A DNA stretch of 64,000 nucleotides from Eledone cirrhosa. Its lineage: Eukaryota. The notes beneath the pieces were generated by a model. It saw nothing but the letters and a program-made list of their open reading frames with translations. It did no database searches and was not told the origin of the DNA. The position numbers and the translations under genes are program-made. How positions within the stretch are numbered: the first letter of the stretch is position 1; every line of letters begins with the position of its first letter. Shown here in pieces: positions 4,056 through 46,512 of this stretch. Location of the stretch: positions 29,078,001 through 29,142,000 of the forward strand of contig OZ024757.1 in assembly GCA_964016885.1 (NCBI GenBank). The letters run 5' to 3'.

Positions 4056-4170
4056 TAGTTCCACAACAGGTTGCACGGTGTACTAACTGTGGAACTACCT
4101 CTACCAATCTCGACCCATGGACTGAGTGCCTTACTACTGCGGATATAACTCACTATTGTGCTGCCACTAT
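4056..4170. mobile_element. 3' part of hammerhead family E element with short inverted copy
   Basis: agttccacaacag matches 34011-34023; ggtgtactaactgtggaact matches the sense 3' end seen at 39837-39860; flanked by TA/CA repeats. Confidence 0.55.
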
Positions 4171-4260
4171 ACATACACACACACACACACATATATATAT
4201 ATATATACATATTATATATATATAATATATATACATATATATACATATTATATATATATA

Positions 4261-4320
4261 TCTTTTACTCCCTTATCTGTTCCAGCCATCCGGCTGAGGC
4301 CATGCTAGGGCACCGCCATT
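4261..4320 (-). mobile_element. Diverged SINE 3' end (octopus-type tail)
   Basis: ttttactc...ctgttccagccatccggctgaggccatgctagggcaccgcc resembles a common octopus SINE tail recalled from memory. Confidence 0.5.
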
Positions 4321-4600
4321 GTTGCTACACATTTAATCTCCAGCCTATATTGGTTGGCCACTGGTGGAAGAGGGAGTTCGTTGCCTTTAGGTTTCCCTCA
4401 CGCCTTGCTGTGGGCTCATCCGGGATCCTGGATAGCAAGTGTTTGCTTCGAGATGTTACTTGAAAATATCCACATCCACACCATACAGATCTCTCAATAC
4501 ATTTAGTTAGCACCCCGAACGTTTAATTAGGAATATACTCACTTCTTTCCTAATGTTTGTTGGAATTTGGCCGGAGTATCGCTAAAAGCTTTCTCCGATA

Positions 4601-5475
4601 ATGTATTTATATATAAATATATATATATATTATATATATATATATTATATATATATTATATATATAATATATATAATATATATATATATATTATATATAT
4701 ATATATTATATATATATAATATATATAATATATATATATATATATATATATTATATATATATAATATATATAATATATATATATATATTATATATATATT
4801 ATATATATATATATTATATATATATAATATATATAATATATATATATATATTATATATATATATATTATATATATATAATATATATAATATATATATTAT
4901 ATATATATATATATAATATATATAATATATATATTATATATATATATATAATATATATATTATATATATATATATAATATATATAATATATATATTATAT
5001 ATATATATATGATATATATATAATAATATATTATATATTATATATTAATATAATATATATTATATATATTATATATATATAAATATATATATATATTACA
5101 TATATAGTATACAGTATGTCCATAGGATCATTTGATAATATATATACACCATTTCCTCTCCCAATTAGCATAATTAACCGCACAAAAAATCAATTAGACC
5201 AGGCTGTAAGATTAAAAGGCACCTGTGAAGAAACAATAGATAAATAAACGACAGCAATCTCTTCGCGGCCAACCCTCATAGAATGTTTACCCAACATTTC
5301 AACAGCACGTGGAAATCGACTAAGTATACCGTCAACCAAACACAATTATATATATATATATATATATTATATATATATATATATATATATATTATATATA
5401 TATATATATATATATATTATATATATATATTATATATATATATTATATAATATATATATTATATATATATATATA
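4601..5475. repeat. (TA)n/TAA/TTA microsatellite with a unique island at about 5110-5345
   Basis: Seen directly. Confidence 0.9.
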
Positions 5476-5984
5476 TGAGAGTATTGAAGTTTGCTTGAAG
5501 CATTGTGGAATAATAGGTAAATATCTTTAAGTCGTTGGAAGCCTCGACAATGCAAATGGGTAAATCTCCGGGTAACAAGATCCGGTGGTGGAGAGAGAGA
5601 TGTAAGTGGGTGTACGTTGAGATGCGTGGTGTGTATAAGACGTGTAGAGGAATGAAGGAAAGAGTATAAAGGATAAAATAAAAATAACAACACGAGAGAG
5701 AGAGAGAGTTACCTTGGGAGAGATGTAATTGTCCCTATATATTTCGGATTCACATCCATCAACTGGGGTTTTTTTCCGGGTGGGGGAAATGGTGTCTGTC
5801 GAAAGGTGCGAAACGCATCCTCCGCGCAATTTGCAATATAAAATTAAGAAGTTGTTGATGCTATTGCATTTATTGGTGTTGTTGTTGGTAGTGGGGGCGG
5901 TGATGGAATTACAAGAATATATATTTTTATGTATGGTCACCACAAACACAACATGTAATATAAAACATCTTGTCCGTTATAATG

Positions 5985-6310
5985 CCAACATCACCACCGA
6001 CGCCACAACGCCAGAACTTACAACGTTAATGGTAATAACAACACTAACTACAACAGCAACAATAACTACACCAGCAACCACAACAACAATAACTACAAAA
6101 GCAACCACAACAACAAGAGCAATTACTACAACAGCAACTACAACAACAGTAACAAATATAACACCGATAATATTAACGAAGTAACAGTAACAGCAACATA
6201 ATCCAATCATCATCATCAACAACAACAACGATAACAACAACAACAACAGTATTGAAAAGAAAACAATAGACAATAACAACAATAACACGAACAATAACAA
6301 TAACAGCTAC
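5985..6310. repeat. (AAC/AAT)n low-complexity tract
   Basis: Seen directly; source of the Thr/Asn/Val-rich ORFs. Confidence 0.9.
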
Positions 6311-6317
6311 CAAACTA

Positions 6318-6506
6318 ATAATTGTTTCTACTTTTGGCACAAGGCCAGCAAATACTCCAGTAGTAATTACTGGTACTTTATTTTATCGACCCTGTAAGGA
6401 TGAAAGGAAAAGTTAACCTCGGCGAGATTTGAACTCAGACCATAAAGGGCCGTAACTCTTTGCTGCAAAGCATGGCGTCCGATCCTCTACCGATACTGCT
6501 AATCCA
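6318..6506 (-). mobile_element. tRNA-derived SINE family A
   Basis: Reverse complement of the 9824-10022 element, including B box GAGTTCAAATC and the CTTTCATCCTTAC-GGGTCGATAAAATAAAGTACCAG core. Confidence 0.9.
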
Positions 6507-6510
6507 AACT

Positions 6511-43537: not shown

Positions 43538-43639
43538 GTATGTATATATATGTATATATATATATATATATATATATATATATATATAAAGATTGTATTT
43601 CTGTTGCTAGAGCATTTTATAACATACAGAAACCATTAT

Positions 43640-43941
43640 CGCCGAGGATAACTTTGCTTTTCATCCTTACGGGGTCGATAAAATAAAGTACCAGTAATGT
43701 ACTGGGGTAATTACTGGTCTTGTGCCAAAAGTAGAAACAGTTATTATTATCAGTGGATTGGCAATATCGGTAGAGGGTCGGACGCCATGCTTTCCAGCAT
43801 AGTTATGTCCCTTTATGATCTGAGTTCAAATCCCGCCGAGGTTATCTTTGCCTTTCATCCTTACGAGGTCGATAAAATAAAGTACCAGTAATACATTGGT
43901 GTAATTTCTGGCCTTGTGCCAAAAGTAGAAACAATTATTAT
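43640..43941 (+). mobile_element. Two tandem SINE A copies (43640-43748 truncated; 43753-43941)
   Basis: Both match the family A consensus. Confidence 0.9.
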
Positions 43942-44534
43942 TGTTGCTTTTGTTCTTATTCTTGTTAATATCTATTATGTGAACTGTGTATTAATTTAGA
44001 TGTTGTAGGTAGTGTTGTTGTTGTTGATGTCAGATATATTTCGTTATCGCTTATGCGACATTTCCTGCTGTGTATTGTGTATCGCTATCTAACTGTTTAA
44101 CTGTCACAGTGACCTTCCTCGTCGCCTACAATTGCCACCATTTTTATCAATACAATGTCGTTTCCACGATGTACATACGTAGCTATTTATATATCTGTGT
44201 TTCGTATAATATATATATATATATATATATATATATATATATATATATATATATAGCTACGTATCTATCTATTTATTTATACACACACACAGACACATTT
44301 ATATATATATATAGAGAGAGAAAGAAGCATATATCGTTTGAGAAACAAATAGTATGTTGTGCACTCATATATAAATCATGATCATCATATTACAAGATAA
44401 CACAAGAGCAAGAATGAAGGGTTCATTCTATTGACATGGCTATACAATTGAGGCTTGTTTGCATAACTGCAAACGAATCGAATGTTATTATTAATATTCG
44501 AAAAACTCAGATTACATTTATTATATATATATAT

Positions 44535-45140
44535 ATTATTCAGAATATTAATAAATGAAGACATTCACATAATCAAAATATATGTTTTATTATATATATT
44601 TCGAAGGTACTGTGTTGTCTTTTCAGTACGTTCTCGTCAGATAAAATACATGAATTGATGTATGACATACCTCAACGGTCTTGATAGTTCAATTCCAGTA
44701 ATGGCAGTGATTTATTACAACAAATCTCAACATTTATATACCATAAATAATAACAGGATAAACTTAAATTTAAAGAAGAAGAGGACGTGGGGTGAGATAG
44801 GGATATAAGGAAGGGGTGAATATGAGATGCAAGAAAAAAGTAAAATAAATAAATACATACATACATAAATATTTAAACAAGTAAATAGATGTATTAGGGA
44901 AGAAATATATAAAAAGACAAAAAAAGGAAGAAAGAGAGAAGAAGAAAGAAGAAATAACGGCAAAACAGAAAGAAATGAGGGGGTAGGTAGACAGACCGTT
45001 GTTTTAAAATATTAAGTTAAATTGATTAATATTCAAATTTATTAATATTCTGAATAATATTAATGACTCCAGAAAACTTCTTGTAGAGTGCTTTTAATCT
45101 ATTGTAAAACTATATTCATTGAGTAATCAATGAACCATAT
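44535..45140 (-). mobile_element. Divergent family D element: hammerhead, upstream UTR-like segment and inverted 3' copy
   Basis: 44535-44555 is an inverted copy of 45037-45058; 45060-45095 carries actccag...gagtgct as at 46085-46107. Confidence 0.65.
44582..44651 (-). ncRNA. Type I hammerhead ribozyme (divergent family D)
   Basis: ATGTATTTTAT-CTGACGA-GAACGTACTG aaaagacaaca CAGTACCTTC-GAA-ATATATAT-A-ATAAAACAT; 9 of 10 stem II positions pair, with C-C at position 4. Confidence 0.88.
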
Positions 45141-45260
45141 TAATCTTTGGTTATATATATATATATAGATAGATAGACACACATAAACACACACACATAC
45201 ACACACATATATATATATATATGCATATATATACATAACGGCACATATATATATATGCAT

Positions 45261-45306
45261 ATATATACATAACGGCACATATATATATGTGCCGTTATGT
45301 ATATAT
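45261..45306. repeat. Perfect 46-bp palindrome
   Basis: atatatacataacggcacatatatatatgtgccgttatgtatatat. Confidence 0.9.
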
Positions 45307-45902
45307 ATCTATGCATAAACACACATATATATATATGTACATAAACATATATATATATACAAAAAAACATATCCTGTACACACACACATGCACAGACACA
45401 CACAGAGATAGTACACACACACACACACACACACACACACACATATATATATATATGTGTATGTGTGCATATATATACGTTTATATATTCTCCGAGAGAG
45501 AAAAGCCTTCCCACGAGGATCTCTTTCTCAATGGAAATCTGCTTGGAGGTTCTATTTGTTTGGGATATGAAACCGCGGTAAGGGCACATATAGTAAGTAC
45601 AGTGAATTTTTTGGAATCTAAATTTTTTATATATTTTTTAGGATATTTTTTGTGTTTACACTCCCTGTGTTTTCTATGTTCTGGCTTGGTAATTTATTAA
45701 CTTGCCATTGAACCACATTAGCATATAGTCGGACTATACTTGTGTCCCTATGTAGGAACATATACCTTTAATATATATGTATGTGTGTATATATATATAT
45801 ATGTGTGTGTGTATATATATATATATATATATGTGTGTATATATATATATATATGTGTGTGTGTGTGTATATATATATTTGTGTATATATATATATATGT
45901 AT

Positions 45903-46170
45903 ATCCAGCGTACTTTCAACCGTCAAGGTTGTTTTCCATGGCTATGTCACTATTTATAAAACACATTTTGTATTTTATCTGATGAAAGCGCACCAAGACT
46001 GCCTTGGTTGCCCTTGAAATATATATAATAAAATAATTATGGTTTTATAAATATAGTTTCCATTTATTAATATATTGAATATTTACTCCAGTAAGCTCTT
46101 GAGTGCTCTATATCAGTTATAAACATTTAAGTTTGTTGGAATCCCAACAAATTAAATATAACTTCTGCAT
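45903..46170 (+). mobile_element. Most complete family D element (PLE terminal-repeat-like) inside (TA)n
   Basis: Hammerhead followed by an actcc...gagtgct 3' hairpin; homologs at 13661, 29802, 44535 and 46326. Confidence 0.8.
45971..46035 (+). ncRNA. Type I hammerhead ribozyme (family D)
   Basis: TATTTTAT(45971-78)-CTGATGA-AAGCGCACCAAG actgc CTTGGTTGCCCTT-GAA-ATATATAT-A(46027)-ATAAAATA; perfect 8-bp stem I. Confidence 0.9.
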
Positions 46171-46325
46171 ATATATATATATATATATATTTTTTTTTTT
46201 GAATGCGATTAAATACTAATGATGGTTGGAAAATCACTGACGAAGGACTATTTTTATCATATGTAACCCATGTGCAACTACGCAGTATTCTTCTTTCTCA
46301 TGTTTTACATATATATATATATATA

Positions 46326-46512
46326 TAATATATAAGAACAAAAGATGGATAAAAGAGTTCCATGTATTTTATTATGCGCATTTCAATACATGGAACTCTT
46401 TTAACCATCTTTTTTTCTTATATATTATATATACTCCAGTCCTACAAACTGTAGAGTGCTTCTTATCCGATATCTGCATTGCTTTATTGTACTACAATAA
46501 AACTCACCTCCT
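46326..46512. mobile_element. Family D-like fold-back with half hammerhead
   Basis: Arms 46326-46368 and 46385-46427; minus strand reads GAA-ATGCGCAT-A-ATAAAATACATG; followed by actccag...gagtgct. Confidence 0.7.

Follow-up and report, generated by a model that had tools for sequence, protein, structure and literature searches.

Penelope-like elements (PLEs) are described as having inverted, 5'-truncated partner copies and an optional tail, and those of the Hydra clade, one of them from Octopus bimaculoides, carry canonical hammerhead ribozymes and insert nearly always into (TA)n (available text of PMC8557442). The protein of Poseidon, another PLE group, cuts AT-rich DNA, extends both strands, is predicted to form a dimer and inserts without hammerhead activity, with the reverse transcriptase (RT) starting at two internal sites that bound the tail (accessible parts of PMC11167929). 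For Octopus vulgaris, 31 recently active Penelope-like families have been reported, and the accessible part of that report does not mention ribozymes (PMC13282606). Here, we analyzed ribozyme-bearing repeats in a stretch of 64,000 nucleotides (nt) from Eledone cirrhosa (GenBank assembly GCA_964016885.1, contig OZ024757.1, positions 29,078,001 to 29,142,000 of the forward strand), hereafter called the window, with coordinates counted from its first letter. These repeats are probably 5'-truncated insertions of several Hydra-clade PLE families of which no more than the hammerhead, a hairpin and the tail entered (TA)n tracts. The elements themselves seem to be ordinary PLE debris of a mostly known kind, and what seems to be new is a doubled covarying hairpin that is aligned with both end points of the copies.

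The window has an animal-type base composition (24% GC), and TA tracts of at least five units make up 32% of its bases. An initial annotation had described four families of repeats, C, D, E, and F, with a common plan of a full or half hammerhead, AT-rich segment and a terminal GAGTRC motif that pairs with an upstream ACTC in C and D. Self-BLAST and alignments confirmed repeats at all of these places, but D is not one family and splits into D1 (13661, 29802, and 45903), D2 (44535 and an overlooked copy at 45035-45150 that we have added) and G (46326), the body of which has no BLAST match to the other D copies and the tail of which is related to theirs (z 3.7-7.3). The three parts of the plan do recur, but a complete hammerhead core is present in only 6 and GAGTRC in only 8 of the 14 listed copies. 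The pairing of ACTC with GAGTRC held up well (8 occurrences vs 0.78 in segment-wise shuffles of non-microsatellite DNA), but GAGTRC does not end the element: it forms the 3' strand of a covarying hairpin and, in copies ending at a TA tract, sits 28-70 nt upstream of it. Read in ribozyme sense, the hammerhead is followed by an AT-rich spacer, a short TA seed, the hairpin, a further 35-63 nt and finally (TA)n.

The hairpin has the form RCUC-NNN-loop-N'N'N'-UH-GAGY-RC, and its upper 3-bp stem and bulge were left out of the search patterns. This upper stem pairs in 17/18 cells in the window and in 35/39 cells in G001, a prokaryote genome bin with animal DNA that is discussed below, compared to 141/342 cells in chance matches, with other registers performing worse. 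The bulge starts with U in all 19 hairpins. For the outer pair, G001 has G-C and the window has A-U. Across a 17-row alignment, 98% of cells pair, which drops to 20-57% when the partners are slid against each other (the rows are related, hence no probability is given). The whole structure appears in none of 119 chance matches; these were drawn from hairpin-plus-TA matches in viral contigs (4 in one scan, 0 in another) and in metagenome contigs (117 loci, 11 of 64 parts), scans that gave chance matches only, with no window family and no Hydra open reading frame (ORF) among them. A strict descriptor, written after the hairpins had been seen, matches 7 times in the window vs 0.06 times in shuffles. 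Pair counts support the hairpin for families C, D1, D2, and G, and the versions in E and F are damaged. A joint covariance model recovers copies outside its training set, three of which follow a hammerhead and an ORF end, and Rfam holds no family for the hairpin of the three loci searched (L128, L221, and L228). Two further sightings stand by themselves: a good match (E 1e-4) beside a TA tract with a TA seed on an unrelated metagenome contig (L007:2239-2280), and a candidate degenerate hairpin with a good upper stem, TT bulge and GAGTAC at 37220-37248 of the window, which has a TA tract on one side, a short TA run on the other and no hammerhead.

We narrow the assignment to the Hydra clade because the hairpin is shared with ORF-bearing elements of Hydra type. 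Animal DNA turned up in two prokaryote bins, G001 and G002, when a back-translated Hydra motif was used for scanning. Relatives of the G001 ORF carry the Hydra motifs RW(K/R) (50/55), DKT (54/55) and CxCX5C (54/55). At one locus, L128, the ORF, hammerhead, hairpin, a 33-nt tail and TA stand in one piece. The pattern GCTC-N8-24-GAGYRC-N20-50-(TA)5 has 76 matches at 21 places in G001 and none in the control. A hammerhead core lies no more than 170 nt upstream at 16 of the 21 places (2 of them across a TA tract), as opposed to 1/110 chance metagenome matches, and an ORF match lies within 600 nt at 8 of them, at least five of these without an intervening element as judged by eye. Six published Hydra consensus sequences were also inspected by eye: at two 3' ends, a TA run is followed by a clear GCTC..GAGCAC hairpin (Hydra-2_Amil and Hydra-2_Ajap), one has a variant (Hydra-1_Crog), one is degenerate, and two stop at a TATA run. 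Hydra protein patterns gave nothing real in viral contigs. Both bins are rich in animal repeat DNA, with 33 (G001) and 5 (G002) matches to Hydra-type PLE protein; this is likely host contamination, and from its likeness to Hydra-2_Amil we infer a coral-like origin.

Copies terminate at one of two points, either 0-20 nt before the hairpin (tail-less) or 35-63 nt past it (tailed). Ten independent ends in the window are tail-less and the remaining ones run through hairpin and tail. Six clear head-to-head pairs (4056, 10198, 13661, 27216, 30222, and 46326) each combine one tailed with one tail-less arm, and 44536/45035 may be a seventh. The window copies thus show the PLE traits of 5' truncation, adjacent inverted copy and optional tail. 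Among 38 mapped ends in G001 and G002, 13 stop 1-6 nt before the hairpin, 20 stop at the tail end (9 of these being the reference copies), and 5 lie elsewhere. At three of five ORF starts in these bins, a hairpin is found ca. 20-45 nt upstream, and the other two are truncated there. Both hairpins are visible at two ORF starts, 62-68 nt apart, and the published 5' end of Hydra-1_Ajap has the hairpin twice as judged by eye. In the two families with both read-through and tailed copies, the tailed ones terminate 4-8 nt short of hairpin 2. Ends therefore stop 1-8 nt before hairpin 1 or hairpin 2 and do so at a short UA seed, which places each end point at a similar offset from its own hairpin. In addition, TA runs within the 14 nt preceding the hairpin exceed those farther upstream in length (3.95 vs 1.90 and 2.62; n = 21, with rows that are not independent and one that is probably a chance match).

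That the copies adjoin (TA)n, as the initial annotation had claimed, is borne out far over background. We counted 20 independent 3' ends, of which 12 are no more than 5 nt and 18 no more than 15 nt away from a TA/TC tract, compared to 4.3% and 8.1% of random non-microsatellite positions and to 5/40 and 6/40 ends of other repeats in the window. This test is partly circular for single-copy tails, unlike tests based on motifs only, in which 5/7 hairpins lie within 70 nt (p = 0.006) and 6/6 hammerhead cores within 150 nt (p = 0.001) of a tract. The window copies are thus inserted into (TA)n like those of the Hydra clade. Two independent ends (the inverted arm of C10198/27216 and E39735) are followed by (TC)n instead, and the element reads TCT there, while TA-flanked ends fall at TAT(A); three of the five TC-then-TA compound tracts in the window sit at element ends. 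Since the flanks match the template in these two independent events, seed pairing is suggested.

Two broader proposals about these elements fared less well. They had been thought to account for much of the unique DNA between the arrays, yet all copies together amount to 2257 bp, i.e., 3.5% of the window or 6.2% of its non-microsatellite DNA. They had also been suspected of helping the arrays grow, but ca. 14 of the 20.6 kb of TA tract belong to four large arrays with only two small listed copies (13661 and 35192). With TA DNA found mostly in large arrays nearly free of copies, element-driven growth is not demonstrated. However, one element has been tandemly duplicated together with its TA unit (33823-33954, period 86), so local amplification does occur.

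Near their 3' ends, window copies carry canonical type I hammerheads like those of the Hydra clade, and these are predicted to self-cleave. The six complete cores belong to the copies at 29802, 30222, 34010, 39735, 44535, and 45903; no C copy has an intact core, and 35192 and 4056 lack any ribozyme part. CTGANGA..GAAA cores number 8 in non-microsatellite DNA vs 2.6 in segment-wise shuffles (at most 7 in any of 200), and a strict three-stem descriptor matches three times, always in family D, vs 0.017 in the null. Stem II of these three D hammerheads shows double-sided changes at 5 pairs. In the F hammerhead, the core is canonical, stems II and III are good, and stem I is weak (z -3.55), while the hammerheads of family E have complete cores and a weak stem II (z -0.56 and -1.55). 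No Rfam family reached its gathering score in window-wide or local scans, with the whole-window ranking by E-value being swamped by TA-hairpin microRNA models. The best hammerhead match was that of F to RF00008 (23.8 bits vs 48.5), and a local scan of E39735 gave none. Core-like matches at 42056 and 46634 were discarded for absence of the stems.

In agreement with the initial annotation, no RT or GIY-YIG ORF was found in the window using Pfam on 81 stop-to-stop frames, tblastn, and a hidden Markov model built from 120 Hydra-type proteins. Pfam misses the Hydra ORFs of the relatives as well (GIY-YIG E 0.053 for one of them), so its silence on the window is weak evidence and the custom model is the better test. 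Because the copies are truncated, this absence is expected, and membership among PLEs is thus deduced rather than proven. Several observations weigh against our assignment or the link between hairpins and end points. No window family is linked to an ORF within these 64 kb, and four window motifs compared to the published Hydra and Naiad consensus files gave nothing but one chance match in Chlamys. A model built from only the G001/G002 hairpins places a window hairpin at the top, albeit without significance (E 0.47) and with only 2 of the window's 7 among 9 matches, and the damaged hairpins of E and F are missed by the hairpin covariance model R1. Hairpin 2 is visible nowhere in the window, its link to tailed ends rests on two families, and the window tails (58-92 nt between end points) exceed the published 30-40 nt. 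TA targeting is not by itself diagnostic of Hydra, since G001 also contains other hammerhead families that end in TA and show no visible hairpin. Finally, the Poseidon RT start sites are not homologous to the cut DNA in the available text of PMC11167929, unlike what seed pairing would require.

Whether the paired hairpins set the RT start sites is a proposal for which we see about even prospects. The element RNA would extend past one unit into the beginning of the following one and would therefore carry two hairpins at a distance of ca. 60-70 nt, with the second directly upstream of the ORF. Probably as a dimer, the RT-GIY-YIG protein would bind both hairpins and nick (TA)n, and the freed 3' end would prime reverse transcription by pairing with a short UA seed that lies 5-12 nt upstream of either hairpin. 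A start at hairpin 1 would give a tail-less end, while a start at hairpin 2 would give a tailed end that includes hairpin 1. If both strands of a single cut served for priming, synthesis ended early and the two short cDNAs were joined, palindromes would result in which one arm is tailed and the other tail-less. RNA processing would be the role of the hammerhead, which would probably be dispensable for insertion. In a bolder version that we find rather doubtful, the doubled hairpin would be a cis-signal for both RT starts and priming would proceed in the fashion of telomerase, with the seed copied reiteratively so that (TA)n or (TC)n would be newly made at every insertion. This would make PLEs a source of microsatellites in TA-rich animal genomes, but one G001 end continues into (TATG)n without a match in the template, which fits a pre-existing target.

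The initial annotation had viewed the repeats as solo terminal repeats or non-autonomous derivatives of microsatellite-targeting PLEs. The link to the ends of such PLEs stands, but we see mostly 5'-truncated insertions with the palindromic C unit (10198/27216) as the exception. The two copies of this unit are identical in 142/152 columns and have the junction, the arm-specific differences and the core mutations in common while their outer flanks are unrelated, so the palindrome was copied whole after its formation and the mutation of its core. This is what would be expected of dedicated non-autonomous elements, retrozyme-like or similar to miniature inverted-repeat transposable elements (MITEs), that are transcribed and mobilized as short units by a PLE protein in trans, and animal retrozymes have indeed been proposed as PLE derivatives (available part of 10.64898/2026.07.22.740005). 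Recombination between microsatellite tracts could also explain the C duplication, however, and all remaining copies differ in their 5' limits and junctions. Moreover, retrozymes form head-to-tail units with complete hammerheads, whereas the window has no tandem array of intact hammerhead units and its sole tandem pair (33823-33954) has a deleted core and a TA spacer. As a general explanation, mobilization in trans is therefore unlikely.

Slightly less probable still are PLE ends from another clade such as Neptune, Nematis, or Naiad, with the hairpin being either a wider PLE feature or a case of convergence. Cephalopod Naiads insert into (TA)n, Neptune is likewise microsatellite-biased (accessible text of PMC8557442), and the cross-genome test of the hairpin model was weak. 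Naiads are, however, described there as lacking canonical hammerheads, unlike the three-stem hammerheads of the window, and the 3' end of Naiad_Obim shows no such hairpin by eye (Naiad being the only other clade looked at), while the hairpin or its variant was seen in the four published Hydra ends named above. Foldback DNA transposons of MITE type, or chance motifs in AT-rich repeats in which hammerheads are incidental, would account for the many palindromic copies with TA flanks and for the lack of any Rfam family over threshold. Yet the palindromes are asymmetric with the tail in one arm, their centers differ, and single arms also exist; hammerhead stem II and hairpin covary, and the motif counts exceed all shuffles, all of which makes this a very improbable explanation. 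We therefore prefer 5'-truncated insertions of Hydra-clade PLEs.

The individual copies show how these features combine. Besides the D1 head-to-head pair at 13663-13888 (-), with a tail-less inverted arm, a tailed arm with the hairpin at 13725-13747, and only the 3' half of the hammerhead, family D1 comprises a tail-less copy at 29802-29989 (-) whose type I hammerhead is complete (C3 29900, predicted cut after 29852) and which lies between two TA tracts. The most complete D1 copy at 45903-46168 (+) has a hammerhead (C3 45979, predicted cut after 46027), the hairpin at 46085-46106, a 62-nt tail, and (TA)10. D2 is represented by a tail-less copy at 44536-44700 (-, 5' limit approximate) with a complete hammerhead (C3 44640, predicted cut after 44591) and by the tailed copy at 45035-45150 (+) with the hairpin at 45066-45091, its possible partner. 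The family G pair at 46333-46514 (+) has a 3' half hammerhead in the inverted arm, the hairpin at 46433-46459, a 55-nt tail and TA on both sides. In the F pair at 30206-30419 (+), the complete core (C3 30285) is in the minus-strand inverted arm, followed in the forward arm by a damaged hairpin (ca. 30364-30387), tail and (TA)15.

Family E consists of a pair at 4058-4167 (+), with a short tail-less inverted arm (4058-4069) and a forward arm with a degenerate hairpin (GAGTGC at 4124-4129) and a ca. 40-nt tail, and of two tail-less copies with complete cores at 34012-34077 (-, C3 34072) and 39736-39861 (+, C3 39799), the latter ending in (TC)9(TA)10. That the first 60 nt of this last copy are an inverted E tail is only suggestive (9/2000 shuffles score as high, and several unrelated windows equal it). 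The C palindrome at 10197-10369 (-) has an inverted arm ending in (TC)n(TA)n and a forward arm with a mutated core (CTGATTA at 10312, GAAG), the hairpin at 10224-10244, an internally deleted tail and (TA)18. Its second copy at 27216-27365 (-) has the hairpin at 27225-27245 and a shortened tail; an ACTC..GAGTAC match at 27227-27247 (+) was dismissed as a by-product of the palindromic hairpin. The other C copies are a tailed one at 30452-30566 (+), 5'-truncated within the hammerhead and with the hairpin at 30504-30524, two tail-less fragments at 33823-33954 (-) with an internal deletion, and a tail-only fragment within a TA array at 35192-35237 (-). The tail of C27216 is interrupted at 27175-27216 by sequence that presumably resembles a Tigger/pogo terminal repeat. 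The fragment at 35192 starts at about the same 8-mer where this tail ends, and the order of the two is not co-linear.

Other repeats of the window share some of this setting. A small family without a visible hammerhead ends at TA (15243-15310 (-), 15645-15707 (+), 30073-30107, and 47264-47292), and the first two of these copies lie inverted to each other at a distance of 400 nt; it could be a terminal-inverted-repeat element or another PLE end. An abundant repeat like a short interspersed nuclear element (SINE), which we take to be similar to octopus repeats, has two copies with TA on either flank and two others that are short head-to-head palindromes (38769-38960, 39962-40142, 6526-6622, and 8009-8101). 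Its pattern resembles PLE pieces, and it was possibly mobilized in part by PLE protein; at a SINE-like 3' end (29650-29720), CTGATGA and GAAAC lie 55 nt apart as a candidate hammerhead. In addition, a long perfect inverted repeat lies in a CATCGT-type low-complexity array (42395-42505), and a repeat family at 43255-43473 (and 31604-32215) with a C2H2 zinc-finger fragment (E 4e-5, below cut-off) is probably a remnant of a long interspersed nuclear element.

PLE insertions have long been noted for two oddities, the optional tail and the head-to-head pairs, and a doubled motif just after each end point gives one rule for both. We found no description of such a hairpin in the literature searched, the scope of which excluded Repbase entries, subscription papers, and picture supplements (including Figs S1-S2 of PMC11167929, which show a stem-loop); in the text of PMC8557442, the word "hairpin" has 0 occurrences and neither the structure nor its doubling is mentioned. 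The rule is open to testing in vitro with a type of assay that already exists, in which 25 nt of RNA would be shifted or mutated, and the hairpin could flag Hydra-type ends without an ORF. It could also help to show directly whether these telomerase-related enzymes base-pair with microsatellites or extend them.

Compared to known systems, the window copies share with non-long-terminal-repeat retrozymes that they are short, non-coding, and PLE-derived with a type I hammerhead, but these retrozymes form head-to-tail arrays with intact cores while the window copies are dispersed, truncated, and head-to-head (available part of 10.64898/2026.07.22.740005). They resemble the minimal and type I hammerheads of metazoan PLE repeats in their dispersed singles, opposite-strand pairs, and a short palindromic stem III suggesting dimeric activity. 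A downstream hairpin is not described in the accessible part of that work, and stem II of family D is unusually long by comparison (PMC4209133). The Poseidon element PAc of Anolis also has two internal RT starts that bound an optional tail, a stem-loop in the start region, AT-rich targets, and extension of both strands, but it belongs to another clade and has a single AC-rich stem-loop inside the ORF instead of two conserved hairpins upstream of it, with a tail of 30-40 nt (accessible parts of PMC11167929). From Hydra-clade elements (e.g., Hydra-1_Obim, Hydra-2_Amil, Hydra-2_Ajap, and Hydra-1_Crog), the window copies differ by having no ORF, no match to a tested consensus motif, and an outer hairpin pair of A-U rather than G-C. 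However, they have in common with this clade a type I hammerhead with short stem III near the 3' end, the (TA)n target, tailed and tail-less ends, inverted partners, the hairpin in consensus ends as judged by eye and, in families E and C, the U on either side of stem II that is also found in many Hydra rows of File S2 (available text of PMC8557442).

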